This document shows positions 1 to 25,856 of a stretch of 64,000 nt of DNA, piece by piece. Source of the stretch: a virus; the IMG/VR virus record IMGVR_UViG_3300018426_001942, positions 87,965 to 151,964 of that record; one strand, written 5' to 3'. Every line of letters begins with the position of its first letter. The stretch's first letter is position 1. The translations under genes were made by a program, and so were the position numbers. The notes beneath the pieces are model-generated. The model was not told where the DNA came from. It saw only the letters and a list, made by a program, of their open reading frames with translations, and did no database searches.

Positions 1-268
1 TATTCAATGTTTGGGTGTCTTCATTTAGTCCGTGTAGTGTTAGACTTTTCCAGCCTTCGCCGTATTCATCTCTGTGTACATGAAACTTATCTACAAGTGC
101 TTCTGCTTCTGCATACATTTCTTTCCAAGGTTGATTATCTAATGCACTTAATCTAAAACACGGCCAGCCGCTTTCCATTACAACCCATTTAGGATCGAAT
201 TGTTCTGGATATATTATGTCTATTTGCTTATCATTTTCGGACAAATATTTCTCTAATTCAGCATTCAT
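1..268 (-). CDS. Partial CDS (runs off the window start); probable Asp/Asn beta-hydroxylase-like Fe(II)/2OG oxygenase, N-terminal part
   Basis: Not in the ORF track. Hand translation from the ATG at 268 gives MNAELEKYLSENDKQIDIIYPEQFDPKWVVMESGWPCFRLSALDNQPWKEMYAEAEALVDKFHVHRDEYGEGWKSLTLHGLNEDTQTLN with no stop. The 'HR..GWKSLTLHG' segment resembles the N-terminus of AspH-like oxygenases; the catalytic HxD..H would lie outside the window. Confidence 0.6.
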   Translation of the reverse strand, partial: MNAELEKYLSENDKQIDIIYPEQFDPKWVVMESGWPCFRLSALDNQPWKEMYAEAEALVDKFHVHRDEYGEGWKSLTLHGLNEDTQTLN

Positions 269-296
269 GTTTACTTTTTTCTTTACCCCGTGTTGT

Positions 297-308
297 TAAA
301 TATACTTA
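297..308. promoter_or_regulatory. Back-to-back putative late promoter boxes (TAAATA on + at 297-302; TAAGTA on - at 303-308)
   Basis: Located in the divergent intergenic gap 269-336. TAAATA matches the box seen upstream of structural genes in this window. Confidence 0.4.
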
Positions 309-336
309 TGCTAGTTTTTAAGGAGTATGTTTAGTC

Positions 337-1371
337 GTGAGATGCAAATATCTTGATAATCAAATCAATGTTGGCACCAACGGATCATATAGATTATGCT
401 GTATGAGCTTAGAACCCGAAGGCGAATACAATATCAAAACACATACACCACAAGAATGGCACAACAGTGAATTCCATAGAGGTATCAGAGAGCAAATGGC
501 TAGAGGTGAATGGCCTGATGCTTGTAGACGTTGTAAAGAAATGGAAGAACACGGATTACAAAGTCAACGTCAAAAAGAAAGAAGATACGGTCCAGGACTT
601 AGCCATTTAGACTTACGTTTAGGCAATAGTTGTAATTTAAAATGTATTAGTTGCTGGCACATGAGCTCTAGTTCAATAGCAGAAGAAGCCGTTGCTATGC
701 ACCAAGCAGGTGTTACACCATTGCATGGCGTATTAGACGTTCCACACTTTAATTGGGCTGACGACAAAGCATTTGATAAATTACTTGATCTACCAATACA
801 CGAAGTATATATGACCGGCGGCGAACCTATGATGGTAAAACATTTGCCACGCTTTTTAGAAAGGTTAAGTCCAGAAACAATTATACGGTTTAATACTAAC
901 TGTACAATTTGGAATCCTAAATTAGAAAAATTACTTAGGAAATTTAATATGGTAATTATGAGTTTTAGTTTAGATGCGACTGACGATCGCATAAACTATA
1001 TTAGGCACGGCACCAAATGGAAAGAAGCAGAAGAAAATGCAAAACGTTGGGCTGATTTTTGTAAGGTTGATATAAGTCCAACTATTAGTATTTTAAATGC
1101 ATGGTTCTATGATGATATAAAAGAATATGCAGACAAGCGTAATTGGAGCGTCTTTGAAAATTTACTCATGACACCCGACTGGTTACATGTTAAGAATGCA
1201 CCCGACGAATTGAAAGCACAATTTCAAGGTGTAGATAAATGGATGAATGAACCTGCTAATCTACTTAAACAAGAAGAATTTAAATATAATATTAATAAGT
1301 TAGACAGCTGGCGTAAAATGTATATAAAGGATTACCTACCTCCGGTAGCAAAAGCATATGGACTTAATTAA
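337..1371 (+). CDS. Radical SAM enzyme with N-terminal twitch/SPASM-like Cys cluster
   Basis: CNLKCISC (CxxxCxxC), TGGEP and FNTN motifs; N-terminal C..NG...CC and CRRC. GTG start with AAGGAG upstream. Confidence 0.9.
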   Translation: MRCKYLDNQINVGTNGSYRLCCMSLEPEGEYNIKTHTPQEWHNSEFHRGIREQMARGEWPDACRRCKEMEEHGLQSQRQKERRYGPGLSHLDLRLGNSCNLKCISCWHMSSSSIAEEAVAMHQAGVTPLHGVLDVPHFNWADDKAFDKLLDLPIHEVYMTGGEPMMVKHLPRFLERLSPETIIRFNTNCTIWNPKLEKLLRKFNMVIMSFSLDATDDRINYIRHGTKWKEAEENAKRWADFCKVDISPTISILNAWFYDDIKEYADKRNWSVFENLLMTPDWLHVKNAPDELKAQFQGVDKWMNEPANLLKQEEFKYNINKLDSWRKMYIKDYLPPVAKAYGLN

Positions 1372-1813
1372 AACAAATAAACAAAAAAAGCGAAGTGTTT
1401 ACAAAGGCGATGGTTACTATAGAAAACTATGGCATTTTGTAGATATGATATGGCTAGATGAACATGTAAAAATGCTAAACAGTATTGTTCCTAACTATGT
1501 TGTAGACTACGGACATAACGAAGATTCTATGTGGTTAGACACAAAAGAAATAGATGGAGTTCCAGCAAGTACACTAGAACACACACCTGAATTTATAAAA
1601 AGAGTATATAAATTTTGTTTAGAAAATATTGAGCAGACTTTACCCTATGTACATGGCGACTGGGTATTAAGTAATATAATTGTTAACGGTGAAAACATGT
1701 ATATGGTCGATTGGGATAATTGCAATGTATATCCTAAACATATAGTTATAGAAAAAATGCAAAAAGACTTACGTAGTGCATTTGGAGATAAATTTGACCC
1801 CTCAAGCATTTAG
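1358..1813 (+). CDS. Minimal protein-kinase-fold phosphotransferase (APH/choline kinase/RIO-like)
   Basis: Catalytic loop HGDWVLSNIIV and metal-binding VDWD; only 151 aa. Confidence 0.75.
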   Translation: MDLIKTNKQKKRSVYKGDGYYRKLWHFVDMIWLDEHVKMLNSIVPNYVVDYGHNEDSMWLDTKEIDGVPASTLEHTPEFIKRVYKFCLENIEQTLPYVHGDWVLSNIIVNGENMYMVDWDNCNVYPKHIVIEKMQKDLRSAFGDKFDPSSI

Positions 1814-3011
1814 TTACCCGACTGTTGGAAATAACAACATGATTTATTGTGCGCCATACGGCCTTACTGAATCTGTTGACTACATGATTAAGTACAATCC
1901 AACTAATCATTCAATTACTAAAATACCATTATTAGTTGACTCAACTACCGAAAAGTGGCAAAAGGGTATTGTACATAGAAACAAAATTTACTTCCTACCA
2001 TACAATGAAAGCAATATATTGGTATTAGATACTAATGACGATAGCATAGAATACTTAAATTTAGAAAAGAAAGGACAAGGAAAATATATTCAAGGTCACA
2101 TATACGGCAGACACATTATAGCATTACCGTACGGCGAGCACGAACCATTTAATTATGTACTAGACATTGATATGCGTACTAACAATGTAACTACTAGACA
2201 CTTAGCGTTGCCTGATGAAACAAAAAGATGGCATACTACCCAAATGTTAGATGGTATAATTTACGGTTTACCTCGAGGAGAAAACTTAGGAAATACATTT
2301 AATTCAAGGATAGAATACGACTGTTTTAATCGTACTTATAAATTAATAGATATGTTGCCTATACTATATGATTATAAAGACGTAAGACATGCTAATAAAA
2401 AATGGACAACACTTGCAAAAGCAAATGATAAATTGTATGCAGCACCGTATTGTGAACATAAAGAATTTGACCTTCTTGCAATTAGAAAAGAAGGTTGGGA
2501 ATATATACAAACCAAACAAACAGGCACTAGCAGAAAATATTTTTCACACACTGTAACAAAAAATGGTAAAATATTTTTTCCGCCAGCAGGCCACGATGAG
2601 GACTGGAGCGAAATGCTTGTTATAAACAGTATGACAGATGAATGGTATGTTAAAGATTTAGGCATTGGAAAAGAAAGTAAAAAATATTTTGCCGGAGTTG
2701 AGAACAGTAAAGGAAAGTTATACTATATCCCTAGAGGAGGATGTGTTTGCGAGCCAGAGGATACATGGAAAAGCCAAGGTGACTTAGCAGAAATATTAGT
2801 TATTGACACAAACACAGAAGAGCATTATACCATAGACGTAAGTAAATATTTTACAGATAATACTACTATTGAAAAGTATAACCAATGTGTAATTATTAAC
2901 GATATCATATATGCCTTTCCATACGGAGAAAGTGAGAGTTTTCAAACTGTACTAGTATTTGATACAAAAGTTGAAAAAGTTATAAGGACAATAGATTTAA
3001 ATGATGTATAA
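1776..3011 (+). CDS. Kelch-like beta-propeller protein
   Basis: Repeated blade motif [IL]Y..P[YR]G every ~50 aa (IYCAPYG, IYFLPY, IIALPYG, IYGLPRG, LYAAPY, IFFPPAG, LYYIPRGG, IYAFPYG). True start is probably TTG at 1794 (GGAG at 1784-1787). Confidence 0.75.
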   Translation: MHLEINLTPQAFSYPTVGNNNMIYCAPYGLTESVDYMIKYNPTNHSITKIPLLVDSTTEKWQKGIVHRNKIYFLPYNESNILVLDTNDDSIEYLNLEKKGQGKYIQGHIYGRHIIALPYGEHEPFNYVLDIDMRTNNVTTRHLALPDETKRWHTTQMLDGIIYGLPRGENLGNTFNSRIEYDCFNRTYKLIDMLPILYDYKDVRHANKKWTTLAKANDKLYAAPYCEHKEFDLLAIRKEGWEYIQTKQTGTSRKYFSHTVTKNGKIFFPPAGHDEDWSEMLVINSMTDEWYVKDLGIGKESKKYFAGVENSKGKLYYIPRGGCVCEPEDTWKSQGDLAEILVIDTNTEEHYTIDVSKYFTDNTTIEKYNQCVIINDIIYAFPYGESESFQTVLVFDTKVEKVIRTIDLNDV

Positions 3012-4143
3012 AGCATTTGAAGATTTCTACAAAGAAGAAAACATAAAGCACTTATTACTCCTTGACTGGAATGGTATATTAACAAGTCCGCCATTTGCTA
3101 CTGAACAATGTAAAGAGTATGCAGATGTTTGGCGTTTTAAAAAAGATATTATCAAATTAGATCTACCTCCTGCTACTAGTAAAACTAATGCTCCTATTGT
3201 TTTAGATAACGATTTATGGCTTATACCATACGGCATATACGACGAACTTAATATTGTAGTACAAATTAAAGACAACGATGTAGTGTATCACAAATTATCG
3301 TTTGCAGGCAAAGGGCAATTTTACAGTATTGCATCAAACGGTACATCTGCGTTTAGTTTTCCTTTAGGATACGAAGATACTAACTACGGACTGTATATTA
3401 ACGAAGGTAAAGTTAGCGAACACAAACTACCCTACGAAGGCAAAAAATTACATATGGGTACTGTATATTGCAATGGCAGATATTGGAGTATGCCGAGAGG
3501 TGATAATCCCGGGTATAACAAACTACTAAGTTTCGACGGTAATAATTTTGAAAGTTTTGAGTTAGACATCAATAGTAATATTACTAGAAAGTTTAGTGAT
3601 ATAATAGTAAAAGACAATACACTTTACAGTTTGCCTTTCGGCGAAACGCCTGGTATGACAGAAATCGTAGAATTTGATACAACTACTAATAGAGCAATAT
3701 ATCATAATTTAACACTAACTAATGACTTTGCTAAAAAATATAATTGTGGCGTTTTAGTTAATAATAAAATAATTGCATTACCATATGGTGACGAATATAG
3801 CCAAGATAGTAATTGGGGTGTAGTTTTTGATACTGACACGAAAGAAAGTAAAGTTTTTGATATTGGTCTTAACTTTGGTGGCAAGTACAGATATCGTTGT
3901 GGTGTAGCACTAGACAACAAAGCAATATTTTTTCCATCTGGTACACCTAGTTGTCCTATAATGAGTGTAGATGAAAATACAAATATAAAAACATTATATC
4001 TTACTGATTATATGTTAGGTCGTCCGTATGTAAAAAATAATTTAATATGCTGTATGTCATATAGAAAAGCCGATAGACAACACTTTATGTTAATATTTGA
4101 TAGCGAATTAAATTTGCTGGGTAGCTATCAACTCTTTGCGTAG
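3001..4143 (+). CDS. Kelch-like beta-propeller protein (paralog of the upstream gene)
   Basis: Same blade motif repeated: LWLIPYG, AFSFPLG, YWSMPRG, LYSLPFG, IIALPYG, AIFFPSG. Confidence 0.75.
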   Translation: MMYKAFEDFYKEENIKHLLLLDWNGILTSPPFATEQCKEYADVWRFKKDIIKLDLPPATSKTNAPIVLDNDLWLIPYGIYDELNIVVQIKDNDVVYHKLSFAGKGQFYSIASNGTSAFSFPLGYEDTNYGLYINEGKVSEHKLPYEGKKLHMGTVYCNGRYWSMPRGDNPGYNKLLSFDGNNFESFELDINSNITRKFSDIIVKDNTLYSLPFGETPGMTEIVEFDTTTNRAIYHNLTLTNDFAKKYNCGVLVNNKIIALPYGDEYSQDSNWGVVFDTDTKESKVFDIGLNFGGKYRYRCGVALDNKAIFFPSGTPSCPIMSVDENTNIKTLYLTDYMLGRPYVKNNLICCMSYRKADRQHFMLIFDSELNLLGSYQLFA

Positions 4144-5031
4144 ATATATATCACTCAAACAGTAACATTTATCTTTACCGCATGTAATTGTACTATTAGG
4201 TAAAGTATATTTTTCTAAATTACCTATTTTGCCGCCTTGCTGACACTCGGCACGGTATATGTCTCCCCACATATCAATACTAATCATATCTAATCCTGCC
4301 CAGCATTTCCAACCTTTGTGTGCATTAAGCTCATTAACTATTAAGTCATTTGCATTAATATCTTTACCATTTAATAGTAGGCCGCCTCTGTGTAACTTTG
4401 TATCATCTAATTTACGTGTATAAGGCCAATTAGTAATAATGTTTTGCTGTGATGTTGAGTATGCACTAACTTCGTTAGTAGGATATCCTTCAATTTCTTG
4501 TTTATCTAAAATTACCTTTGGCCATATCATTACATTGTCGCTACAATTAAATAAACGTTCTGCAATATCTAATAGTTCATCAAAACTATCAGGTAACATC
4601 ATAAGATTAACAGCAACAGGACAAGTCATTACTTTTATAACTTCTATTATATGATCAATATTAGCAAATTCAGGATGATAACTGATAATCATTCCGTCAG
4701 TGTGTTCTGTTATCTCTGCGAAGTATTCTACTTTTTGACTTGCGTTGGTTAGAAAACTAAAGTATTGGCCTTGTTGTTTTACAAGTTTAGCCATGTCAAT
4801 AAAATGTTTCCAATAAGTAGGTTCGCCGCCTGAAATCCTATAGCAAATTTGTTTGCCATTAGCATCAAAGTTTTCTACAAAATTTTTAACCGTGTCCCAT
4901 TTTTTATGGCCTGTACTTCCGTCATGAAGTCTGCTTGGACAATAAGAACAACGGTAATTGCATTTATTAGATAGTGTCCAACTAACTAAAAACCAATCTT
5001 CTTTTGCAGGGTCTTTGTAAGAAAGTTTCAT
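4108..5031 (-). CDS. Radical SAM enzyme with C-terminal twitch-like domain
   Basis: CNYRCSYC, SGGEPT and LTN motifs; C-terminal CWAG...YRAEC...C....CYC. Confidence 0.9.
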   Translation of the reverse strand: MKLSYKDPAKEDWFLVSWTLSNKCNYRCSYCPSRLHDGSTGHKKWDTVKNFVENFDANGKQICYRISGGEPTYWKHFIDMAKLVKQQGQYFSFLTNASQKVEYFAEITEHTDGMIISYHPEFANIDHIIEVIKVMTCPVAVNLMMLPDSFDELLDIAERLFNCSDNVMIWPKVILDKQEIEGYPTNEVSAYSTSQQNIITNWPYTRKLDDTKLHRGGLLLNGKDINANDLIVNELNAHKGWKCWAGLDMISIDMWGDIYRAECQQGGKIGNLEKYTLPNSTITCGKDKCYCLSDIYLRKELIATQQI

Positions 5032-5684
5032 TCTGCCATTGTGTTATTTAAAATTAGTTGTTGTGTACGTTCATTTAATTTTACTGTTAAAATTAATGAA
5101 TACAGATTATCACTAAAACTAAACACACTGTGATCTAATTGAAAGTTTGTAAAGTAAACAAATCCAGGTTCTGGGTATAATGGCTTGCCGTCTACCATTT
5201 GTACATAATTTTCAGGACTACAACGTCCAAACACTACTAGCAATCTAAAATATTCTGGACTTACACCGTGAAAGTCTCTGTGCGGAGGAAAGAAGCCTCC
5301 TTGGTCAACACGCAATAAATGTACACGACCAATATCTGGTGCAAAAACATCTACTAGTTTTGCAAGCTCAGGAATATTATTATACACCTCTGTTGGTGTG
5401 TTAAAGTTTTCTTCCTTCATTTCTATGTCATGGTATTTCTGCATATGACCAAAACTATTCAAATGGTAATTGTCCATAACATCACCGGTGTGACTTGTTA
5501 CTGGTAACCCCCAGCGATTATTGTGAGTGTCTTTTTTAGCATTGTACGGACACCAATTATCTTTAAACTGTTCTAATTGTTGTTCAACTTGGTGATGGTC
5601 AATATGCCATTTAAGTTTTACTTGGTTACCTAAGTTGACTAAACTTTGCCAACGTAGTCCTCTTTCAATTTCTTCAGGTGTCAT
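5028..5684 (-). CDS. Asp/Asn beta-hydroxylase-like Fe(II)/2OG oxygenase
   Basis: RVHLLRVDQGGFFPPHRD (HxD), then PGFVYFTN...DHSV supplying the distal His; jelly-roll pattern. Confidence 0.75.
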   Translation of the reverse strand: MTPEEIERGLRWQSLVNLGNQVKLKWHIDHHQVEQQLEQFKDNWCPYNAKKDTHNNRWGLPVTSHTGDVMDNYHLNSFGHMQKYHDIEMKEENFNTPTEVYNNIPELAKLVDVFAPDIGRVHLLRVDQGGFFPPHRDFHGVSPEYFRLLVVFGRCSPENYVQMVDGKPLYPEPGFVYFTNFQLDHSVFSFSDNLYSLILTVKLNERTQQLILNNTMAE

Positions 5685-6976
5685 ATATCTCTCAATTCTT
5701 TAAACGTATTTCTAAAGTTTAATTCTCTTGTTTTGTCGCATATTTCTAAGTATTGTACAGCCGCCGGAAGTTTATGTGACCAATCTTCTGAATTCATGTA
5801 ATCAACTAAACCTAACCAACGCATTTTGCCATAAGCATTATTAATAAATTCATGTGTGTTAATACTATTAGCAAACTTACTTATCGTATCTGCGGCTTGG
5901 GCTTTTAAGTCTTGAGGTAGTACTCGCACATTTAAGTAGGACGGTAAGTACACTAAATGTAACCCTATTATACCTCCGCCATATGGCGCACGATTTATTT
6001 TTTTAAAGTTTTGATCTAACTTCCATTGTGCAAGTTCTACTAAACTGTGTACATTAAGAAGTTGTACGGCGCAAGCAAGATTAACAGTTATATGATCTGA
6101 TGTATTATCAAGTAAATGCATATTCTCTACAATACTATCCCACTTACTCGGATGTCTTATGTAATCATTTTTTTCGCCAACACTGTCAACACTAAAGTTA
6201 AATTTTACTTCTTTAAAATATTCCCACATATCAAGCAATCTTTGTGATATGTCTGTAGCATTACTATTATATCTAAGTATACAATCTTTTGCATAACCTT
6301 CGTCTATCATAAATTGTAGTATTGCATAATGTTCCGGTATGAGCAATGGTTCTCCGCCAGCAAAATATAATTCTTTTATATAGTGTGCTTGATTTTTTAC
6401 AGAGTCTAAGAAACTACTTTTCTTGTACCATACATAATCAAAACTAGGATCCCAGCCTTGATCTTGTTTCAAATCTATAAGTTCATATTTTGGATATTGT
6501 AATTTCCAATCTTTAATCCACTTTGAGCTATCATGCGGACTACACATAATGCATTTTAAATTACATAGGTTACCTAATCTTAAATCAAAGTAAGGTATGT
6601 TTACAGGCAACGTGCCATCTTCTTGTGTTTGATCAACAATTTCTTGTACATTGATCCTTTCATTCCATACCTCGGTTTCCCAATTCCTTTTGCTTTTTAT
6701 ACCTTTTGCCTCTTCTTCAAAACATTTTTTACAACTTAAAGGAATTTCATCATTAAGCATTTGCAATCTAGTATTACGCATTTGCTCACTATTCCAAACT
6801 TCTTCGATAGTATGATCACGTAGATTCATGTTAACACCATCTTGTTTAACAAGTCCTACTTCCTTGTTGTCAGTCTTGCCTGCGCCACTAGCGTTTGCTG
6901 TACAACAAACTCTTACATCGCCATTTGGTCTAGTTGCCAAATGTATCCATGGCAAGGGGCAGAATGTTTTACCCAT
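5681..6976 (-). CDS. Radical SAM enzyme with N-terminal twitch/SPASM-like Cys cluster
   Basis: N-terminal CPLPWIH...NGDVRVCC and CKKC; core CNLKCIMC, FAGGEP, YNSN. Confidence 0.92.
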   Translation of the reverse strand: MGKTFCPLPWIHLATRPNGDVRVCCTANASGAGKTDNKEVGLVKQDGVNMNLRDHTIEEVWNSEQMRNTRLQMLNDEIPLSCKKCFEEEAKGIKSKRNWETEVWNERINVQEIVDQTQEDGTLPVNIPYFDLRLGNLCNLKCIMCSPHDSSKWIKDWKLQYPKYELIDLKQDQGWDPSFDYVWYKKSSFLDSVKNQAHYIKELYFAGGEPLLIPEHYAILQFMIDEGYAKDCILRYNSNATDISQRLLDMWEYFKEVKFNFSVDSVGEKNDYIRHPSKWDSIVENMHLLDNTSDHITVNLACAVQLLNVHSLVELAQWKLDQNFKKINRAPYGGGIIGLHLVYLPSYLNVRVLPQDLKAQAADTISKFANSINTHEFINNAYGKMRWLGLVDYMNSEDWSHKLPAAVQYLEICDKTRELNFRNTFKELRDI

Positions 6977-7568
6977 TAAATTTATGTCCTATAATCATAT
7001 ATCTTGTGTACTTAGGTGTTTTAAATTCTCCTACATATGCAACATATACTTTTGATTGCTGTACAAAGTCTTCCATACTTTTTGCACATCTTACGTGTTC
7101 ATCAAGGTCAACATAGTTATTACTTTGTAGTACTACCTTTGTACCTGGTTGAATATTACTTAACCATTTGTCATATTGCTCTTGTGTTAAATGCTCGCAA
7201 CTAGTGTTAATAGCAACATCTGCATCTGTAGTGTACTCGCACATATCTGCTGTTGTGGCAGTAAATCTTCCGTCCATGTGATAACGCATGTTAATAGTTT
7301 CTGCAATAGTTTTACAAACAGGATCAATATCTATGCTTTCTATTTCAGGTATTGCAAGATCACTATTAAAGAGTAAACTTGCAAGTACTCCATTCCAGCC
7401 ACCGTAAATAGCAACATTACCTTGAAGTTTATATTCTTGCATTTGTTCTATTAACCAAAGTTTACTGTGTACTTGGCCTTTCCAAAAACTTTCTAGTGTA
7501 CGATATCGATTTTCGCTGTTACGAATTGCGTCCATCCAAAACAGTACATCTTCAATATCAACTTTCAA
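6969..7568 (-). CDS. Class I SAM-dependent methyltransferase
   Basis: VAIYGGWNG motif I variant, SIDIDP acidic motif II, ADM, INTSCEH. Confidence 0.75.
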   Translation of the reverse strand: MKVDIEDVLFWMDAIRNSENRYRTLESFWKGQVHSKLWLIEQMQEYKLQGNVAIYGGWNGVLASLLFNSDLAIPEIESIDIDPVCKTIAETINMRYHMDGRFTATTADMCEYTTDADVAINTSCEHLTQEQYDKWLSNIQPGTKVVLQSNNYVDLDEHVRCAKSMEDFVQQSKVYVAYVGEFKTPKYTRYMIIGHKFNG

Positions 7569-8544
7569 ATTGAGCTCCTAGTTTATCAAACTTGCCGCAT
7601 TGTTTTTGACATTCTTTTAAACAACCGTTTGACCATGTGTTTTCGATACTACTAAAAAAGTTACTGTCAAATATTTCTTGCAAAGTATGGTTATTAAGAT
7701 TAGGAAAATTTCCTATTTTATCCATGTAATCAATTCTACTTTCACTTACTGGTGGTAGCCATTCTAAATCTAACCAACAACAGGGTGCAATGTTACCGTT
7801 AGCAGCAACATATATAGATTGAGAGTTTTGTGCTTTGCAAGTTATTGTTGGGCTTATTTCTTGTTTTGCTTCTTCTACTATTTTTATAAAACTTTCACTT
7901 GTTTCTGTAGGGTACAAAATATCAATTGTTTTTCCAGTATCATCTAAAACATTAAATTGGCCATTTTTAAATCTACTAGAATTTTTGTACTTAAAATCAC
8001 TAAAGCCTAATTCACTTGCAAGTTGTCTACATTCATCTACTTGATGTTTGTTGTGACGGAACACTAACATATCCCATCTAGCATTGCCGCCTGCATTAAT
8101 AAACGTTTTTGCATTTTCTAGTATAGTGTGAAAGTCTGTGTTTATTCTATAGCGAGAATGTGTATCTTCTAGTCCGTCTATTCCAAATACTACAGTTACA
8201 TCTACACTAGCAAGTTCTTGCCACCATGTACTATTCCTTGCACTACCATTTGTATGCATTTGTAAATTAATGTTAGGATTTACTTCACGCAAGTATTTGT
8301 ATATGTCAAGTGTTTCAGTATTAATAATAGGATCACCTAAGTTACCACACATATTAAGTTTGTCAAGTTGTTGTATAAAACTAACTGAAAACCATTCTTT
8401 GAATGTTTCTAAGGTAATATCATCTAATGTTACATATGGCATCATAGGACCGCCTTGCATACGTCTTGGACACATCGGGCAACGTGCTTGACATCGTGAA
8501 GTAACTTCTAGATGTATGTCTCTTATTTGATCCAACTTATACAT
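7558..8544 (-). CDS. Radical SAM/SPASM(twitch) enzyme
   Basis: CQARCPMC, GNLGDP, HTNG, GIDG; C-terminal CKA...NGNIAPCC...CLKECQKQC. Confidence 0.9.
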   Translation of the reverse strand: MYKLDQIRDIHLEVTSRCQARCPMCPRRMQGGPMMPYVTLDDITLETFKEWFSVSFIQQLDKLNMCGNLGDPIINTETLDIYKYLREVNPNINLQMHTNGSARNSTWWQELASVDVTVVFGIDGLEDTHSRYRINTDFHTILENAKTFINAGGNARWDMLVFRHNKHQVDECRQLASELGFSDFKYKNSSRFKNGQFNVLDDTGKTIDILYPTETSESFIKIVEEAKQEISPTITCKAQNSQSIYVAANGNIAPCCWLDLEWLPPVSESRIDYMDKIGNFPNLNNHTLQEIFDSNFFSSIENTWSNGCLKECQKQCGKFDKLGAQFES

Positions 8545-11899: not shown

Positions 11900-11905
11900 C
11901 TTATT

Positions 11906-14757: not shown

Positions 14758-15721
14758 TTACTTGTTCCTTTATCCAGGCATAGGTATGCTTTAGTCCATA
14801 CTCTAAGTCTTCATCAGGTCTCCAACCTAAAAGTTCTTCAATTAATTTATTATGACTAGTTCGACCCATAACACCTACAGGTCCGTCAACATTGTTTATT
14901 TCTAATGTATTCTTACCTGCTATTTGTGCAATTAATTGGGCTAAGTCGTTTATTGATATCATTCTTTCGCTACCAAGGTTAACTGGTTGATCGATATCAC
15001 TTGCCATAATTTTTTGAAGTCCTTTGATACACTCTTCAATATATAAAAAACTACGTGTTTGGTTACCTGGTCCCCATATATCTACTTTTCCGTTACTTTC
15101 TGCAACTTTACGACAGAGTGCCGCTGGTGCTTTTTCTTTGCCGTCATTCCAACTACCGTATGGGCCAAAGACATTGTGTAATCTTACAACCTTTGCATCT
15201 ATATTGTAATTTTTTCTATGTGTTAAATACAAACGTTCACTAAACAGTTTTTCCCAGCCATATTCTGTATCTGGTTCTGCAGGATATGCACTTACTTCTT
15301 CGCAATAAGGATTATCCGGATCTAATTGATTACGTTCCGGATACACACATGCACTACTTGTGTACAAAATCTTCTTGATACCTTTTTTAGTTGCTTCGTG
15401 TAGTACGTTTAAATTTATTAATGCACTATTATGCATTATATCGCTATCATGCTCACCTATTCCAATATATCCTGTGCCGCCCATATCTGCTGCAAGCTGA
15501 TATATTTCATCTAAATCATTTCTGACAACTCCTGCTACAAAATCAGGATTGCGCAAATCTACTTGATAGAATTCTTGTGCCCTTGTAGGTTCAAATGCAG
15601 GTTGTTTTATATCTGCACCTATCACATAATTTCCTTGCTCGACTAGTTCGTTAACTAGATGATGCCCTATGAAGCCGCCGGCTCCGCATACTAATATTTT
15701 CTTTTTCATCTTAATTCCCAT
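14732..15721 (-). CDS. NAD-dependent epimerase/dehydratase, GDP-mannose 3,5-epimerase-like
   Basis: GAGGFIG, QLAADMGG, SSACVYP, YGWEK (YxxxK), EKAPAALCRKV, QTRSF. True start is probably ATG 15709, just after the upstream stop. Confidence 0.88.
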   Translation of the reverse strand: MGIKMKKKILVCGAGGFIGHHLVNELVEQGNYVIGADIKQPAFEPTRAQEFYQVDLRNPDFVAGVVRNDLDEIYQLAADMGGTGYIGIGEHDSDIMHNSALINLNVLHEATKKGIKKILYTSSACVYPERNQLDPDNPYCEEVSAYPAEPDTEYGWEKLFSERLYLTHRKNYNIDAKVVRLHNVFGPYGSWNDGKEKAPAALCRKVAESNGKVDIWGPGNQTRSFLYIEECIKGLQKIMASDIDQPVNLGSERMISINDLAQLIAQIAGKNTLEINNVDGPVGVMGRTSHNKLIEELLGWRPDEDLEYGLKHTYAWIKEQVNANIQQNG

Positions 15722-16985
15722 ATTTTTCTGTTATTAAATCTAATTCAACATCAGGTAATGTTTTTAAATGTTGAAAATTATATTCAACAATTCCTGCTAC
15801 TTCTTCAGTAAATTTTATCTTACGTTCGTCCGACCAATTTGATATTGAGTTTACAATATCACAAATTTGTTTTATGCGTTCTACTGGATCAGCAACAGTA
15901 TCATAATCTTCTGACCACCAGTGATCAAAAGTTTTGAATCCCATGTCTTTTATATGTTGTAAACTTCCTTTTGCACCCATCATTATAAATGGTTGCTTAT
16001 AAGCAATAGGCTTATAAGTTTTTTCTGTAATGTGTATTTCATCAGTAAAGAAAAAAGTTTCGCTAATAATATTTATTAGGCTATTTTTAAAATAATGCTC
16101 TATTGATTCCTCAGTTGACTCCATAGGATAACTGTTAAAGTTAGGATTATCTAGCACTAACGGAAGTTTATTTTTACTAGGTAAAATATCATCTTTAGTA
16201 ATATCTAAATTAGGATAACGTTTTATAAGATAATCAACATTACTTTCGAATGATCTTCCAGACTCTGGTTGCTTGCTATCCATGCTCATATAAAATTTGT
16301 CAAGTAGTTTTAGTTTAAACATTTTAATAAAAAATGTAAGTCTGTGATCACTATACCTACGCTGAAAACATAAGAAATCTTTCTCTCTTGGTCCAATAAT
16401 ATACGGATCTTGTTTGAGTAGTGTTTGCTCCACGTTTGTTCTATGTATTTTAAATGTAGGAAAATATTCTACATTAATCTTAGGACCTGGTTTATTTTCT
16501 GCCCACTTATTATACAGCTCTTGTCCGTTAGCACAATTTGTAAAATAAACAACCTTGTCTAAAGGTATTTCGTAATGATTAAAAAATTGTGTCATTACTT
16601 CCCAGTGCCTATGAGTTACCCAACCTTCAAATGGAATGGTAACAAGTATGTATCCGTTACCATTCTGTATTTGGTCTCTAATTAACGAACTAGGCGGATT
16701 ATTAACAAATGGTCCGTCAGTAGTACTAAAAAGTTTTGTCCAATCTCTATAATAATACGATGTGAAATTTAATTCGTAAAAGTATTTTTTGTCTTGTGGG
16801 ATTTTAAATGCAGAAATAATTTCTCTATTTTTAAATGACTGAAACACTACTGGTGCTTGTACATCATCATCTACGTGTCCTTCATTCATAGCATAATTTA
16901 TGTCTGCTAGTGTAGGTACTCTATTGTTAGTTATTGGCCATTTAGGTCCGCACCATTTGTATGCAAAACTTAAAATTTTAGACAT
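15711..16985 (-). CDS. Putative glycosyltransferase, GT10-like C-terminal motif
   Basis: SLINIISETFF...ITEKTYKPIAYKQPFIMMG...GFKTFDHWWSEDYD. Confidence 0.55.
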   Translation of the reverse strand: MSKILSFAYKWCGPKWPITNNRVPTLADINYAMNEGHVDDDVQAPVVFQSFKNREIISAFKIPQDKKYFYELNFTSYYYRDWTKLFSTTDGPFVNNPPSSLIRDQIQNGNGYILVTIPFEGWVTHRHWEVMTQFFNHYEIPLDKVVYFTNCANGQELYNKWAENKPGPKINVEYFPTFKIHRTNVEQTLLKQDPYIIGPREKDFLCFQRRYSDHRLTFFIKMFKLKLLDKFYMSMDSKQPESGRSFESNVDYLIKRYPNLDITKDDILPSKNKLPLVLDNPNFNSYPMESTEESIEHYFKNSLINIISETFFFTDEIHITEKTYKPIAYKQPFIMMGAKGSLQHIKDMGFKTFDHWWSEDYDTVADPVERIKQICDIVNSISNWSDERKIKFTEEVAGIVEYNFQHLKTLPDVELDLITEKYGN

Positions 16986-18354
16986 TACTACAATCCTTAT
17001 AAAAGTTTTCTAACTCAGGAAATGTTTCAACTAAGTTAGTATCTCTACGTTTGTCATATTCAGAAAACCAAGAATAAAAATTACGTTTGCCTTTGATAAT
17101 TGTTTCTTCATCATAATTTGTATTTCTCATGTAGTCTACAACCCGTCTAAATCTTTCATATTCTAAAGAACTAAATTTTGTACGGTCTTTGTCATTTACG
17201 TTTGACTCTATAAAGTTTAAGTGGTCTTCCATATATGGCATAAACTTTTCTTTAGGCAAAATATTCATATCAAATTGTAAAGGTTCTTTTAGATACGGTG
17301 TATCAAATCTAACACGTTGCCACTGTGTTTCATTTGTATCAGTATTGTACTTTTGTCGCCATTCTAAAATCTTTACTAGTAGCAAACTAAAACTAGTAAC
17401 AGCAAACAAATTAAATGTTACCATAAACGTTACAGGCCAACCTGTACTACTTAGGTAATAATCTAAATTCTTTTCCCAAAGCTCAATGTCAAGTCCGGTA
17501 CGAGTATATTCTGCACGTGGTCCCCAGGTGTCAATACTAGTATATAACTTAAAACTATTAATACAGTTTTTTGCCTTAAGATCTTTAACACGCTCTACAA
17601 GTCTATAAACCATTGCAGGCTTTACGCCCATATTACTGTTAAGTTCTATATTAAGATGAGGTTTAGGATTTTCTTCTAATTCGTCAAACAATCGCCATGT
17701 ACTCTTATGCATGAGCGGCTCACCGCCTGTAACACGCAATATGTTTAGTGTTTTACTAACTTCAGGCCACCACTTCCACCATGCATCTACATACGGATTA
17801 GTTTCTTCTTCATATAATTCAAACCAGTCAATGTCATTTCTGTGTTCTGTGCTGTCGCTGTATGGGCCGTAATGTTTTATTTCATTATAGTATCTACTAC
17901 TAAATTTTGGATGGCAATAACCGCATTTAAAATTACATTCATTACTAAAGTTTACTTCTATATATTCTGGATTAATATCGTAATCCCAAGGATTGCTTTT
18001 TATTTCTTCTATCCTTTCAGGAGTATAAATGCTTGTAGTCTTGATATGTCTGTCACTTACATAGTCCTTGCCCATACATTCTATATTCCAGCAATATTGA
18101 CAGCCACTGGGCTTGCCTCCATTTAGCATTGCTAACCGTTCTTGTTTTTTCTGTGGAGTATTATGTAACTGGCTCGGATTTTCATCTAACCCTTCGAGTG
18201 GAATTTTATGAGGTGCAGGATGGTAGCAACTATGTGTCTCGCCTGTTTGTAAATAAATTGTAACATGATGCCATTTTGCTAGACAAAAAGTAGGCGAGGT
18301 TTCTCTTTCTACTTTAGGCATAATTTCTTTAATCCTGATTAGCTCAGTATTCAT
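16978..18354 (-). CDS. Radical SAM enzyme with N-terminal twitch/SPASM-like cluster
   Basis: N-terminal CLAKWHH...HSCYH and CQYC; core CNFKCGYC, TGGEP, LNSN, TSID. Confidence 0.92.
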   Translation of the reverse strand: MNTELIRIKEIMPKVERETSPTFCLAKWHHVTIYLQTGETHSCYHPAPHKIPLEGLDENPSQLHNTPQKKQERLAMLNGGKPSGCQYCWNIECMGKDYVSDRHIKTTSIYTPERIEEIKSNPWDYDINPEYIEVNFSNECNFKCGYCHPKFSSRYYNEIKHYGPYSDSTEHRNDIDWFELYEEETNPYVDAWWKWWPEVSKTLNILRVTGGEPLMHKSTWRLFDELEENPKPHLNIELNSNMGVKPAMVYRLVERVKDLKAKNCINSFKLYTSIDTWGPRAEYTRTGLDIELWEKNLDYYLSSTGWPVTFMVTFNLFAVTSFSLLLVKILEWRQKYNTDTNETQWQRVRFDTPYLKEPLQFDMNILPKEKFMPYMEDHLNFIESNVNDKDRTKFSSLEYERFRRVVDYMRNTNYDEETIIKGKRNFYSWFSEYDKRRDTNLVETFPELENFYKDCSNV

Positions 18355-19241
18355 CTTTTCTTAATTATCCTCGGTGTGTTTTGATACACACTTTTAAAAA
18401 ATCTACTACCTTGTGCATCTAGGTCTGATATTTCTAAATCTAATTCATTACGCAAATTATTACCGTACTTAAAACTTTCAGATTTAACATCAAGTTCACT
18501 TACTTTTTCTTCTTTCCAATAATTTGTTAGGTATTTAAAATCTCTTACATTAGTATAGTCCCAATCTGTACACATTGTCATGTAACAGCCCATTCTTGCA
18601 CCAAGTATACTCCAATCTCCATACTCTACATCTGCTCCAACAGTACACCATATACGCAATCTATCTAAGTTTTGCCACCAAACTTTTTTTATGTCAGTTG
18701 CTTTGGCACCTTCGTTAAGGCTCATTTTAACGCCTTCGCGAAATCCTGCTCTCCAAGCCTGAAATGGAGACCCGTTTGTATAACTTACTGAATAATTATC
18801 ATTAAATTGATAATATTTTTCGTCAAAACAAAACTCTACAAGTCCTTTCGTATCGTCTGGATTTGAATTTTCATGTGTTTTCATATTATGGACGAACTTA
18901 CGAGTCCACATTTTTAATCCACCATTGCCGTACATAAGTCCGTTAACGTGAACTTTGCCACACCAACTAAAAACATAGTCTTCAGTGACGCCTAACTTTT
19001 CTAAATCAATTTCTTGCTGTAAAAATTCAGTGTCTATTATGTTGTCACCGTCAACTGTGACAAAATATTCTGTTTCACTTAGATCTGCACATGCCTTGTG
19101 TGCGGCATCTGATCCGTCTACACCATGAACACGCTTTGCCCAAGGCAACTTGTTACACAAGTCTGCATAGTTTTTTTCAGCATTTGGTTCGTCATAAGAT
19201 AAAAAGATAATATCTTGATCAATGACTTTGATTTTACTCAT
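18351..19241 (-). CDS. Glycosyltransferase (GT-A fold)
   Basis: DIIFLSYDE..GSDAAH..FVTVDGD (DxD)..YGNGGLK..AWRAGFREG; homologous to the C-terminal domain of 10223..11899. Confidence 0.72.
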   Translation of the reverse strand: MSKIKVIDQDIIFLSYDEPNAEKNYADLCNKLPWAKRVHGVDGSDAAHKACADLSETEYFVTVDGDNIIDTEFLQQEIDLEKLGVTEDYVFSWCGKVHVNGLMYGNGGLKMWTRKFVHNMKTHENSNPDDTKGLVEFCFDEKYYQFNDNYSVSYTNGSPFQAWRAGFREGVKMSLNEGAKATDIKKVWWQNLDRLRIWCTVGADVEYGDWSILGARMGCYMTMCTDWDYTNVRDFKYLTNYWKEEKVSELDVKSESFKYGNNLRNELDLEISDLDAQGSRFFKSVYQNTPRIIKKR

Positions 19242-19809
19242 TTACTACCTCGCAAGAATACTTCTGAAACCTTCTATTAGTATATACACTAAAATCTTCA
19301 AGATTAAACTGAGTCTGGCTGTTAAACTCGAGTTCATTATCGATTAAATGCTCTACTGTAGTGGTAAAATATTCGTGCAAGATATTCGGATTATTCTTCT
19401 GCGTAACAGAAAACCTTAAATTTTGATTTATTCTTTCTTTTTTATCTTCTAGTTCTAGTTTTGCCTCGTCTGATAAAGAAATATTCCACAAATTTTGTTT
19501 TGTTTTGTATTTTACTATAACTTGAGCATTATTTGTTGGAATAATTTTATACACATTATCATTAACATCTGACTCAATTTTCTTATTCTTAGATACAATT
19601 ACATAAGATGATGTTCCGACATCATAAACAACTTTGTGCGTTGTTATACTTTTGTTGCCGTCTAGAAAATCACGTATATCTTCAATTTGTGCCGGGAAAG
19701 AGCTCTCAAATTCCTGTTCTATGTTAGATATAGATTTAATATCTCCTGTATCTTTATCAAAATATACCTTATGTTTGATTTCAAATTTAGGTGTCTGTAG
19801 TACAATCAT
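19234..19809 (-). CDS. Hypothetical protein
   Basis: 191-aa ORF overlapping both neighbours in operon fashion; no recognisable motif. Confidence 0.75.
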   Translation of the reverse strand: MIVLQTPKFEIKHKVYFDKDTGDIKSISNIEQEFESSFPAQIEDIRDFLDGNKSITTHKVVYDVGTSSYVIVSKNKKIESDVNDNVYKIIPTNNAQVIVKYKTKQNLWNISLSDEAKLELEDKKERINQNLRFSVTQKNNPNILHEYFTTTVEHLIDNELEFNSQTQFNLEDFSVYTNRRFQKYSCEVVNE

Positions 19810-20642
19810 ATATCTAACCTCTTTTCTAGTATACTCAAAATGTCATCTGTTAAGAAACTATCTTCAGTGTAATGGAAAATACCAGTTTGCTTGTAATTAC
19901 CAATAAAAAGTTCTGCTTGATTTGTAAAATATGAGCCAACTTTCGTTTGCCAACTCTCACGAATATCATTCCAGCCTTGTATGTTTGCTTTCATGTGTGT
20001 AAATGAAGGATTAGGTAAATTAGGATTAGTAACTTTTGACTTACAGTCAAGCATATCTACAGTCATTGCTGCCGTTAAATCCATACTTGCAAAATTTTGT
20101 ATTAATTTATCGCCCTTAACCTTATAAAAATCCTGCCAATTGTTAGTAATAGTATCTAACCATTTGTAAAATTCAAGTGCAAAATCACTTTTCTTAAAAT
20201 AATGGAAACCCATGTACACATCAGGTAAATGTAACTTTTTAAAATTACGTCTATAAAATGTATCTGTAACTCTTTCACCTCTGTAATCATAAACTGTTGA
20301 CGTTAGAAACATATCATAAGGTTGTAAAATTTCCATCCAACTTGTAATATCGTCTAACACTAACATGTCTGTGTCTAACACTATTGCATCATCATAAGGA
20401 GATATAAAGTAAGTTTTCCATCTATTGTGTATTTTCCAATCATACTTGTTTGCTAAGTCGCCCCATGGTATTTCAATAATGTTATCAAACAGGTCTTTGT
20501 ATTTTTCAGGCACAACATTATCGGTTAGAATACTAATTTTAGAATTAGGAGTAGTGTTGTGTATGCTCATAGCAAGAGCACATGCTTGCTGCACGTAATC
20601 AACATGTTCAGTATTTTGTGCAACTAGAATAAAATTAGGCAT
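19806..20642 (-). CDS. Glycosyltransferase, GT8-like
   Basis: DYVQQA..LA.SI, ISPYDDAIVLDTDML (DxD), FTHMK, FHYT. Confidence 0.72.
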   Translation of the reverse strand: MPNFILVAQNTEHVDYVQQACALAMSIHNTTPNSKISILTDNVVPEKYKDLFDNIIEIPWGDLANKYDWKIHNRWKTYFISPYDDAIVLDTDMLVLDDITSWMEILQPYDMFLTSTVYDYRGERVTDTFYRRNFKKLHLPDVYMGFHYFKKSDFALEFYKWLDTITNNWQDFYKVKGDKLIQNFASMDLTAAMTVDMLDCKSKVTNPNLPNPSFTHMKANIQGWNDIRESWQTKVGSYFTNQAELFIGNYKQTGIFHYTEDSFLTDDILSILEKRLDI

Positions 20643-21477
20643 CTATTATTTCCTCTAATGCATATTTGTTCATTACATGCACACTATTTCCTAAAAACTT
20701 ACAAGGAATAAATTGATCAATAGTATTTTCTTTTTGTAGTAAGAACGTAAATTTATCATCTTGAATACTGTGAACTAAATCTCTATCCGCCGTAAAAAAC
20801 AATTTACCCGGCATTGACTTTGCAAAATTTCCTTGCTTAAAATTGTTCATTATATGAATTGCAATACTAAAAGCATAATCGTTTCTATAAGTTGTGGAGA
20901 CAATATTATAAACATTTCTATAGTGTCTATAATTTTCCTGTATATGCTTTAATAAATTAAAAAAAGTTCTATTTAATTCTGTTTTTCTAAAAAATACACA
21001 AGTAGCCCAATAAAAATCTACACTTGTTTCACTTATAAATTTAAATTCACTTGTATCTCTTGATGCTAGATCAATAGCATCTTTGTAAATTAAAAAGTCA
21101 TAGGCACTATCATAAGCATTTTTTAATATGCTATCTGCAATAACATAATCACTATCTAGTACTATAGTTTCATCATACGGACTAAGATCAAAAGCAAGTA
21201 CCCTATCATCATTTTTGAAATCTAAAACTTTGTGTGTCTTTGCACTATTGTAAAAATATTTCTTGCTGGACTCAACTGTGATATCATTTATAATAATTTT
21301 ATCAAATACATCTTTATACCTGTCATTAATGCTCTGTTTATCTGTAACTATAGAAACAGGAATAGACAAATATTGTTCAGCACGTTTTGCAAGAAAAGCT
21401 GCTTGCTTTACATAATCAATTTCACTGTTATTATGTGCAAAAACAAGAATACCTTTACTCATTAAAGATGCCTTCAA
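20635..21477 (-). CDS. Glycosyltransferase, GT8-like (paralog of the downstream gene)
   Basis: DYVKQA, LSPYDETIVLDSDY (DxD), RND, VHVMNK. Start is probably the second Met (MSKGILVFA). Confidence 0.72.
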   Translation of the reverse strand: MKASLMSKGILVFAHNNSEIDYVKQAAFLAKRAEQYLSIPVSIVTDKQSINDRYKDVFDKIIINDITVESSKKYFYNSAKTHKVLDFKNDDRVLAFDLSPYDETIVLDSDYVIADSILKNAYDSAYDFLIYKDAIDLASRDTSEFKFISETSVDFYWATCVFFRKTELNRTFFNLLKHIQENYRHYRNVYNIVSTTYRNDYAFSIAIHIMNNFKQGNFAKSMPGKLFFTADRDLVHSIQDDKFTFLLQKENTIDQFIPCKFLGNSVHVMNKYALEEIIDA

Positions 21478-21802
21478 CTGATCGTTGCTTTTTGATTTTA
21501 TTGTATTCGGTGAAATACTTGTTAGAGGCTTCTGCGTATGTTTTTACAAGATTATTTGTAAACCTTGGTAAATCATCTACAAGAATAGGAATGCCATTAT
21601 CATCTGTAAGTACAATTTGATCTTGTTCTAAACTTACTAGACTTTGACAAAAACTAATTAGTTCTTTAGAGGATGTAAACTGACAGCCGCTTTCGTAATG
21701 TATTAAGTCTGATTGATATTGTTGCTGTAAAAGATTCTTTTGTTGATTTATAATGTCAAGTAATTTACTTGCTTCAAGTGCTTTTGCTAATTTTTCGTCC
21801 AT
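21455..21802 (-). CDS. Hypothetical protein (first gene of the glycosylation operon)
   Basis: 115-aa ORF with a GGAG SD directly downstream of a consensus promoter. Confidence 0.75.
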   Translation of the reverse strand: MDEKLAKALEASKLLDIINQQKNLLQQQYQSDLIHYESGCQFTSSKELISFCQSLVSLEQDQIVLTDDNGIPILVDDLPRFTNNLVKTYAEASNKYFTEYNKIKKQRSVEGIFNE

Positions 21803-21827
21803 ACAAAGTCTCCATAAGTATACTGTA

Positions 21828-21856
21828 ATTATACACTATCAGGCTTTGATTGTCAA
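21828..21856 (-). promoter_or_regulatory. Perfect sigma70 consensus promoter TTGACA-N17-TATAAT
   Basis: -35 at 21856-21851, -10 at 21833-21828, followed by a GGAG SD and the ATG at 21802. Confidence 0.85.
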
Positions 21857-25835: not shown

Positions 25836-25856
25836 TTATTTTTCCTCTATATTATG

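Follow-up and report, generated by a model that had tools for sequence, protein, structure and literature searches.

What is made by a viral locus in which six radical S-adenosylmethionine (radical SAM) enzymes are encoded among AspH-type oxygenases and glycosyltransferase-like proteins, beside the tail-fibre genes? The question is raised by IMG/VR record IMGVR_UViG_3300018426_001942, a 151,964-bp contig from an uncultured, marine, giant (jumbo) phage, whose last 64 kb were analysed (the window; coordinates are those of the window unless the contig is named). An earlier, sequence-only reading of the window had proposed a complete pathway that builds an unusual, heavily tailored glycan for virion fibres, the host surface or DNA. 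The present analysis found a coherent and conserved locus in which nucleotide-sugar enzymes and three kinds of glycosyltransferase (GT)-like protein stand amid radical SAM and Fe(II) oxygenase genes, and this part of the proposal stands; the locus is not the first of its type, however, as such an island had already been described in 2020 (PMC7029224). The answer that is favoured here, with an even chance of being correct, is that the locus is a cytoplasmic island for building and tailoring a glycan, with the virion as its probable target, and that, in a jumbo phage, it corresponds to the host recognition cluster (HRC) of marine T4-like phages.

The island was found to extend over about 31.2 kb with about 36 genes (contig 78582 to 109766, equal to window -9382 to 21802) and to be bracketed by fibre genes, with a gene carrying an Mtd_N domain on one side and the main block of five fibre genes on the other. 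The tight packing described earlier was confirmed: 24 open reading frames (ORFs), running from 21802 down to 4108 on the minus strand and from 337 to 4143 on the plus strand, abut or overlap by 1 to 38 nt, and the only gaps are of 68, 20 and 50 bp. Throughout the minus-strand run from 21802 to 4108 (17.7 kb) stop and start codons overlap. The left edge, which had been taken as open, was located: the cluster runs on for 9.4 kb beyond the window and then stops at a gene for a 361-aa fibre protein with the Mtd_N domain, beyond which lie MoxR/VWA-type genes. The gene inventory of the window was borne out almost item by item, and the real block is larger than first described.

Radical SAM proteins were recognised by the CX3CX2C motif and a Pfam PF04055 score above the cut-off of 29.5 bits. 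Two further models were used, NF033640 (NCBIfam N_Twi_rSAM; cut-off 170 bits over the whole protein, with Cys ligands N-terminal to the radical SAM core) and the SPASM domain PF13186 (Pfam cut-off 21.5 bits). Six intact genes were found in the window:

337 to 1371, plus strand: N_Twi_rSAM protein with N-terminal twitch domain (NF033640 224.8 bits; CX3CX2C at residue 99)
4108 to 5031, minus strand: radical SAM protein with C-terminal Cys group, paralogue of 9247 to 10230 (PF04055 43.8 bits; phmmer E 7e-19)
5681 to 6976, minus strand: N_Twi_rSAM protein of the conserved core, present in all related loci (NF033640 407.8 bits; N-terminal PF13186 38.1 bits)
7558 to 8544, minus strand: radical SAM protein of the conserved core with C-terminal SPASM domain (PF04055 35.7 bits; PF13186 26.2 bits)
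9247 to 10230, minus strand: radical SAM protein, best conserved member of the core (PF04055 42.3 bits; 64-72% identical in distant phage loci)
16978 to 18354, minus strand: N_Twi_rSAM protein among GT genes (NF033640 315.4 bits; beside homologues of GT types 1, 2 and 3 in related loci L055 and L056)

All six carry CX3CX2C and further Cys groups, in agreement with the auxiliary clusters claimed earlier. Five (337-1371, 4108-5031, 5681-6976, 7558-8544 and 9247-10230) pass PF04055; the sixth, 16978-18354, reaches 27.1 bits against the cut-off of 29.5 and yet is clearly recognised by NF033640. Three groups can be distinguished: three N_Twi_rSAM proteins, one protein with a C-terminal SPASM domain and two paralogues with a C-terminal Cys group. 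The three genes outside the first group score 21-52 bits on NF033640 and are non-members. The three members (225-408 bits) keep the N-terminal Cys set as well as CX3CX2C; in an alignment of 16 N_Twi_rSAM sequences C6, C82 and C85 are invariant and lie N-terminal to C138, C142 and C145. In this phage and its relatives the N_Twi_rSAM family is expanded to 2-10 copies per phage. The family of 5681-6976 has 4722 metagenomic homologues at E <= 1e-5. Searches of PDB sequences with single radical SAM proteins gave nothing significant, and models of peptide maturases gave weak matches, all far below their cut-offs. Literature searches found no characterised member of the N_Twi_rSAM family nor any paper on it, and nothing relevant on jumbo phages, radical SAM enzymes and glycosyltransferases together.

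The second group of tailoring enzymes consists of cupins related to the Asp/Asn beta-hydroxylase family (PF05118, Pfam cut-off 22.6 bits). Two AspH-like oxygenases had been claimed for the window and both were recovered, the first by PF05118 and the second by paralogy and its HxD...H motif:

1 to 268 (2 to 268), minus strand: AspH-type cupin, first 89 codons of a 232-aa gene that continues to contig 87534 (PF05118 50.7 bits for the whole gene; HxD...H)
5028 to 5684, minus strand: divergent AspH-type cupin (no Pfam match; phmmer E 2.4e-6 to an AspH paralogue; HxD...H; 71-95% identical in relatives)

Tight packing continues to the left of the window, where four more AspH-type cupin proteins, one of them with two domains, were found, and a 489-aa conserved protein without assigned function (contig 86063-87532). 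On the other strand of this part are one further cupin, two proteins without assigned function and an AMP-binding fragment. The whole island has eight cupin domains, and in their alignment the H, D and H of the iron site are the sole invariant columns. PF05118 is passed by five domains in four proteins, which lie left of the window edge or straddle it; one further domain falls below the cut-off (18.1-18.4 bits), and the cupins at 5028-5684 and at contig 78582-79352 have no Pfam match and are tied to the family by paralogy only. The left part also encodes a 368-aa flavin enzyme of the Trp_halogenase family (contig 81293-82399, L001:13293-14399; 244 bits), which is shorter than the 458-position profile. 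It sits at the end of the cupin array and has 58-59% identical homologues in loci L018 and L021.

The coexistence of oxygen-sensitive Fe-S enzymes with O2-dependent oxygenases had been singled out as unexplained. The idea of a paradox was considered and rejected as overstated: radical SAM enzymes and O2-dependent oxygenases routinely coexist in aerobic cells, which run both side by side.

The GT-like proteins, of which about seven of three types had been counted, form three paralogue families by phmmer: type 1, GT-A-like; type 2, GT-B; and type 3, GT8-like. The count holds on these families together with fold and profile evidence, though not on any Pfam or NCBIfam family.

11920 to 13056, minus strand: type 2, GT-B-fold GT-like protein, paralogue of 15711-16985, included in the type 2 alignment
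13642 to 14757, minus strand: type 2, GT-B-fold GT-like protein (phmmer E 5e-15 to 15711-16985)
15711 to 16985, minus strand: type 2, GT-B-fold GT-like protein, the modelled copy (AlphaFold2 confidence score pLDDT 72.7; fold matches by VIA and Foldseek)
18351 to 19241, minus strand: type 1, GT-A-like protein (pLDDT about 80 for residues 1-100; invariant DxD, D64 and D66)
10223 to 11899, minus strand: 558-aa protein with degenerate GT-A-like repeats followed by one intact type 1 domain with DGD (BLASTP of residues 328-529 to 18351-19241, E 7e-23)
19806 to 20642, minus strand: type 3, GT8-like (glycogenin-like) GT-A protein (type 3 profile to glycogenin, E 0.0023)
20635 to 21477, minus strand: type 3, GT8-like paralogue (phmmer E 1.1e-10 to 19806-20642)

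The structural model of the type 2 copy was compared with the PDB using VIA. The top 46 matches have Z 8-11.9, and 45 of them are sugar-transferase enzymes of GT-B fold, the sole exception being a domain-only match to a receptor entry at rank 44. Full-length matches align 245-316 residues and include the alpha1,3-fucosyltransferases 5zoi (Z 10.6) and FUT9 (Z 10.5). A chlorovirus GT and the T4 glucosyltransferases are also among the matches, and Foldseek agrees on GT-B. The type 2 proteins are thus predicted, by this model, to have the two-Rossmann-domain GT-B fold. Their alignment has an invariant block, ...E-T-F-F...I-T-E-K..., which we take to resemble the GT10 motif; a search of the contig with Pfam GT10 (PF00852, alpha1,3-fucosyltransferases) found nothing up to E 10. 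Relatives of type 2 are found in many unnamed phage proteins, a profile search giving 238 proteins, all without a name or a Pfam domain. One protein of an uncultured phage (BFVD A0A6J5TB28, 788 aa) has the N-domain of a UDP-glucose/GDP-mannose dehydrogenase fused to a type 2 GT-B-like domain, a gene fusion which suggests that the two activities may be coupled.

For type 1, Foldseek matched the N-terminal Rossmann-like domain to SpsA, TarP and SunS at E of about 1e-4 to 1e-3. PDB sequence searches with the type 1 and type 2 profiles gave nothing significant, and an Atlas search with type 1 gave only viral clusters without a Pfam family. The 558-aa protein at 10223-11899 apparently contains three degenerate copies of the type 1 N-domain, in which DxD has become WDD, WKN and WDN, as well as the intact copy with VDGD; the profile finds copies 1, 2 and 4, and copy 3 was recognised by eye only. 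The type 3 proteins are GT8-like by resemblance, through a profile built from nine sequences that reaches glycogenin, and are not members of the family by hidden Markov model: Pfam GT8 (PF01501) was matched nowhere in the contig up to E 10, and neither type 3 protein has a Pfam match.

Two nucleotide-sugar enzymes had been predicted and both were identified, one of them as a truncated relative:

14732 to 15721, minus strand: GDP-mannose 3,5-epimerase (GME) homologue, 329 aa (plant GME E 2e-87, 297 bits, residues 8-322; PF01370 145 bits)
8537 to 9247, minus strand: truncated UDP-glucose/GDP-mannose dehydrogenase-like protein, 236 aa (PF00984 54.4 bits; PF03721 24.7 bits, below the cut-off of 27)

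The epimerase homologue is similar to plant GME (PDB 2c59) over the full short-chain dehydrogenase/reductase (SDR) domain, the next SDR family reaching only 96 bits against 297; unlike the plant enzyme it has no N-terminal extension. From this similarity it would supply GDP-L-galactose or GDP-L-gulose. As the epimerase homologue stands with three fucosyltransferase-like GT-B paralogues, residues of L-galactose or L-gulose are hypothesised in the product. The dehydrogenase-like protein is a truncated relative of its family that does not have the three-domain architecture: the C-terminal nucleotide-sugar domain is missing, and the GKCLPKD motif near the C-terminus is kept.

The island proteins appear to be soluble. 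A hydropathy analysis in 19-residue windows found no typical membrane segment in any of 37 proteins; the top value was 1.89, and 1.8 was exceeded in three proteins only, with one short peak each. No Pfam families for Wzx/Wzy or ABC-type O-antigen or capsule parts (lipid-carrier transferase, flippase or transporter, polymerase) were found in the island.

The main operon was found to begin at a promoter of its own:

21828 to 21856, minus strand: perfect sigma-70 consensus promoter TTGACA-N17-TATAAT, 12/12 positions, in the 50-bp gap at the head of the main operon

About 0.06 perfect sites would be expected by chance in 20 kb (an estimate). The promoter is perfect in seven related contigs despite a differing spacer and upstream gene, and it is nearly so in a relative with a first gene of only 42% identity. 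The 152-kb contig has nine perfect TTGACA-N16-18-TATAAT sites against about 0.5 expected. Most lie in the half of the contig with plus-strand genes for replication and nucleotide metabolism, several of them directly upstream of an ORF, and none of the nine precedes a baseplate or fibre gene. Perfect sites of this kind look like a clean marker of the early promoter class of the phage. Given the conserved promoter and this distribution of sites, the main operon is most likely its own early-type unit, read by host RNA polymerase, and not a read-through from the late fibre genes. Upstream of the homologues of the first gene (21455-21802) identity breaks exactly at the -35 box (L059-L062 compared with L066-L068). 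The gene that precedes the island operon differs from relative to relative, and a recombination joint at the promoter is therefore indicated. The T4 late-promoter octamer TATAAATA was also considered for timing the island and was rejected as unusable, being strongly depleted (2 on both strands of the window together, against 13.3 expected). One of the two octamers stands 37 nt upstream of the fibre gene at 26884-28383.

Relatives in IMG/VR were collected by two protein-seeded scans, which gave 72 loci, and were compared by a presence/identity matrix and gene maps. Synteny with mosaic cassettes was seen in more than 40 loci. The whole block is present in near-identical phages, with single genes or cassettes swapped; where the radical SAM protein is 97% identical, the genes around it may be missing or 55-99% identical. 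The block from the 489-aa protein to 10223-11899 is kept down to 66% identity. A smaller core, consisting of the radical SAM gene 5681-6976, the methyltransferase-like gene 6969-7568, the SPASM radical SAM gene 7558-8544 and the radical SAM gene 9247-10230, is kept down to 43%. In L055 and L056, at only 27-28% identity, N_Twi_rSAM genes are again interleaved with homologues of GT types 1, 2 and 3. The co-occurrence across relatives that had been proposed as a check was therefore found, in the form of a mosaic block. Five larger related records have 2-10 N_Twi_rSAM genes each above the cut-off, AspH matches inside or beside the radical SAM cluster in four of the five (about 13 kb away in the fifth, G005) and fibre homologues 5-10 kb away in three.

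No cultured relative with the island was found. A Megablast search with 22 kb gave no DNA match among 50,697 phage records, and tblastn with two radical SAM genes gave only 22-24% identical matches in Campylobacter, Vibrio and Ralstonia phages. Homologues of the radical SAM protein 9247-10230 that are 48% identical were found in two Pseudobdellovibrionaceae metagenome-assembled genomes (L087 and L088), in one case on a 558-kb contig, adjoining dnaG and rpoD. Beside the bacterial homologue are two N_Twi_rSAM genes and a methyltransferase-like gene. The bacterial core genes are about 60% identical to those of the IMG/VR loci L034, L050, L053 and L057, and so are closer to them than those loci are to this phage, suggesting either a recent exchange or that the phages of these four loci may infect such bacteria. 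A scan of a genome collection found no close bacterial relative of the N_Twi_rSAM protein.

The remaining genes of the island in the window, and the fibre block that flanks it, are as follows:

1358 to 1813, plus strand: minimal APH/RIO-type kinase-like protein, 151 aa (RIO1 22.0 bits, exactly the cut-off; APH 21.0 bits, just below it; HGD...N and DWD motifs)
1776 to 3011, plus strand: Kelch-like repeat protein, probably a beta-propeller (sub-threshold Kelch match, E 0.0019; eight xP(Y/R)G repeats at 43-63 aa spacing)
3001 to 4143, plus strand: paralogue of the repeat protein 1776-3011 (phmmer E 9.7e-14; no Pfam match)
6969 to 7568, minus strand: small class I methyltransferase-like protein of the conserved core (Methyltransf_25 in 6/10 orthologues, best E 1.8e-4)
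13056 to 13649, minus strand: possible class I methyltransferase (Methyltransf_24 E 0.091 only)
19234 to 19809, minus strand: conserved 191-aa protein without assigned function (no family match; 65-70% identical in relatives)
21455 to 21802, minus strand: first gene of the main operon, 115 aa, without assigned function (no family match; 42-83% identical in relatives)
22335 to 32326, minus strand: flanking block of five fibre-type proteins, context and candidate target (PHROG matches to tail fibre and tail protein; Collar domain)

Three further items of the earlier inventory were examined. The kinase has the expected motifs and a RIO1 score no higher than the cut-off. The two putative beta-propellers are supported by the eight repeats and the paralogue (E about 1e-13), the Kelch match itself being sub-threshold, and a propeller profile gave nothing significant against PDB sequences. 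The two methyltransferases are plausible only: for 6969-7568 the family match is seen in orthologues and is below detection in the window's own copy, and 13056-13649 has nothing beyond its marginal match. Profiles of both families gave nothing significant in PDB sequence searches, and hhalign found no relation between the two. PHROGs gave nothing useful for ten unassigned proteins.

Some side observations concern the genes left of the window. The AMP-binding fragment (222 aa, contig 80157-80825, L001:12157-12825) begins at about the TSGST...PK motif and does not have the N-terminal third of an adenylating enzyme; a 271-aa ORF that overlaps it upstream has no family match. A 148-aa phosphatase-like protein (contig 83561-84007, L001:15561-16007) with the CX5R signature C-A-K-G-Q-S-R stands amid the cupin genes, and could form a phosphorylation/dephosphorylation pair with the kinase-like protein 1358-1813.

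The contig has 35% GC and no terminal repeat. It was rated by CheckV as 43% complete at 152 kb, and the whole genome is therefore estimated at about 350 kb. A T4-type structural module occupies the right half of the window, with genes for gp25-like and gp6-like baseplate wedge proteins and a gp5-like hub with lysozyme. Genes for a gp46/47-like recombination nuclease, a 5005-aa ORF and the five fibre-type proteins are also found there. The baseplate wedge is 36-38% identical to that of jumbo phages SCTP-2, Atu_ph07 and PA5oct, the closest group. The neighbouring fibre proteins have 0-5 Cys each, and no Cys pattern like that of the EGF-like acceptors of protein Asp/Asn hydroxylation is evident in them. 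The 5005-aa protein is encoded by a single ORF (32968-47985) between the baseplate wedge gene and the fibre genes, and may be the counterpart of cyanophage VrlC.

The closest known system is the host recognition cluster of pelagimyophages and cyanomyophages described by Zaragoza-Solas et al. in 2020 (PMC7029224). It lies between VrlC and the neck protein gp14 and contains tail fibres, glycosyltransferases (mostly GT8), UDP-glucose dehydrogenase, AspH as a core gene and insertable radical SAM cassettes; its authors, who described it by annotation only, propose modification of the host O-chain (PMC7029224). The two are alike in being hypervariable regions within the structural module that combine fibres with glycan-type genes and vary in content among close relatives. 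Here the likeness is seen in the fibre genes on both sides of the island and in its mosaic content among relatives. They differ in that the HRC comes from marine T4-like phages, whereas the phage of the island is a jumbo phage whose baseplate is nearest to that of SCTP-2, Atu_ph07 and PA5oct. The enzyme part of the island is also far denser (six radical SAM enzymes, eight cupin domains, a halogenase and GME), and the island has its own conserved sigma-70 promoter. The island type is therefore already published at annotation level (PMC7029224), and what is particular to this locus is the jumbo setting, the eight-domain cupin array with halogenase, the GME link and the conserved promoter. The earlier statement that no characterised phage pathway explains the locus holds.

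A precedent for virion decoration is provided by chloroviruses and Megavirinae, in which soluble viral GTs and nucleotide-sugar enzymes act in the cytoplasm and the capsid or fibrils are decorated (PMC9614988, PMC10117803). The gene clusters for fibril glycosylation of giant viruses differ by clade (PMC10117803). GTs of chloroviruses and mimiviruses appear among the fold matches of the island GT-like proteins. These viruses have eukaryotic hosts and characterised glycans, whereas virion glycosylation is a prediction for the island phage. We know of no radical SAM or AspH tailoring enzymes in chlorovirus or Megavirinae glycosylation. The chlorovirus glycosylation genes are also early, a point against taking an early-type promoter as a sign of a host or DNA target.

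In the glycan-building reading, a soluble set of cytoplasmic enzymes would build a glycan-type product and then edit it heavily. The operon would be transcribed early by host RNA polymerase, and host GDP-mannose would be converted to GDP-L-galactose or GDP-L-gulose. An oligosaccharide would be assembled on a cytoplasmic acceptor by the three fucosyltransferase-like GT-B paralogues together with the enzymes of GT-A type, and the radical SAM, cupin, methyl, phospho and halogenating enzymes would then diversify it. By analogy with chloroviruses and mimiviruses the acceptor would most probably be the fibre or virion proteins of the phage itself, and this is the weakest step. The virion is favoured as the target by the conserved linkage to fibres, the lack of an export or lipid-carrier step and the precedent of the eukaryotic viruses (PMC9614988, PMC10117803). 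A direct action of the N_Twi_rSAM enzymes and the AspH-type cupins on a glycan or glycoprotein destined for the phage fibres is a tentative proposal, which is considered rather more likely to be wrong than right.

Several results weigh against this reading. No Pfam, NCBIfam or PHROGs family reaches its cut-off for any of the seven GT-like proteins. The type 1 model is poor past residue 100, and its VIA matches (Z 7-8.5) are to GT-A and nucleotidyltransferase folds alike, which were not separated. All five of the more distant records that keep radical SAM and AspH genes lack the module of epimerase and type 2 GT. A Pfam scan of ten neighbours of the bacterial radical SAM core found no GT. The three-enzyme bacterial core is therefore taken as a mobile unit able to work without the GT set and, as it stands in a bacterial chromosome with no GT match among the ten neighbours scanned, its enzymes need not be sugar-specific; the radical SAM chemistry may not be glycan chemistry, and a non-glycan substrate is possible. 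The island recombines independently of the gene upstream of its promoter. No acceptor was identified for the island product, and an early-type promoter would suit a host or DNA target no less well than decoration of the virion.

The last point bears on the alternative that survives best, which is possible and still clearly unlikely: the island would remodel the host envelope, altering the lipopolysaccharide (LPS) core, O-chain or capsule at the cytoplasmic face and blocking superinfection or re-adsorption of progeny. The early-type sigma-70 promoter at the head of the operon suits such a role. GT8-like enzymes, NDP-sugar dehydrogenases and WaaP/APH-like kinases are of types usual in LPS core pathways, whose GTs are peripheral and lack membrane segments, and LpxO, of the AspH family, hydroxylates lipid A. 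LpxO, however, is membrane-bound and the island cupins are not. The island encodes no lipid-carrier transferase, flippase or polymerase, nor any other membrane protein. Tight linkage to fibre genes across lineages would be superfluous for this role. The same explanation has been proposed for the glycosyltransferases of the pelagimyophage HRC (PMC7029224).

A second alternative is that the enzymes mature a peptide or protein, or make a small-molecule natural product, to which the GTs add a sugar only late. The SPASM domain, the halogenase and the AMP-binding fragment are consistent with this, and protein hydroxylation is the activity for which the AspH family is best known. The bacterial radical SAM core, with no GT match among its ten scanned neighbours, points the same way. 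The peptide-maturase matches that might be added to these are, however, all far below their cut-offs, and the adenylation enzyme is only a 222-aa fragment. No precursor-like short ORF was found in the gaps, which are of 68 bp at most, small overlapping ORFs not having been covered exhaustively. The interleaving of N_Twi_rSAM genes with GTs in distant phages also argues against this explanation, which is judged improbable.

It could also be argued that there is no single pathway and that independent accessory genes have gathered at an insertion-tolerant, hypervariable site. Mosaic content, with relatives of 97% identical radical SAM protein differing in alleles and gene presence, sub-modules that are found separately and the recombination joint at the promoter are all as expected for such a region. 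It would not account for overlapping, translationally coupled genes over 17.7 kb or for the same enzyme families being together again in lineages less than 30% identical. The catalytic motifs, moreover, all appear to be intact. This explanation has a slight chance of being correct.

Hypermodification of DNA, in which the enzymes would glycosylate and tailor a modified base of the phage DNA, is very improbable in spite of the early-type promoter and the T4 alpha- and beta-glucosyltransferases among the GT-B fold matches (Z 11.0), as those matches are no better than dozens to other GT-B enzymes, Pfam scans of the island found no base hydroxymethylase, TET/JBP-type oxygenase or DNA-binding domain, and the island is located in the fibre module.

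The conserved sigma-70 promoter means that the island is probably its own transcription unit and not the tail of a late fibre operon. The epimerase homologue and the fucosyltransferase-like GT-B family offer a concrete entry for reconstitution, through GDP-L-galactose or GDP-L-gulose. The island would also offer a setting in which to test substrates for N_Twi_rSAM, whose thousands of metagenomic members have no reaction assigned to them. If the radical SAM enzymes and cupins do act on a fibre glycan, radical C-H chemistry (epimerisation, dehydration, C-methylation or cross-linking) would be combined with hydroxylation and halogenation of the sugar coat of a virion, giving a fast-evolving way to vary or mask host-recognition structures. 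This would be the first function for a large, unstudied radical SAM family and the first case of viral glycans tailored by radical SAM enzymes. If the fibres carry the product, host recognition by abundant marine giant phages would vary not only with fibre sequence but also with chemistry.

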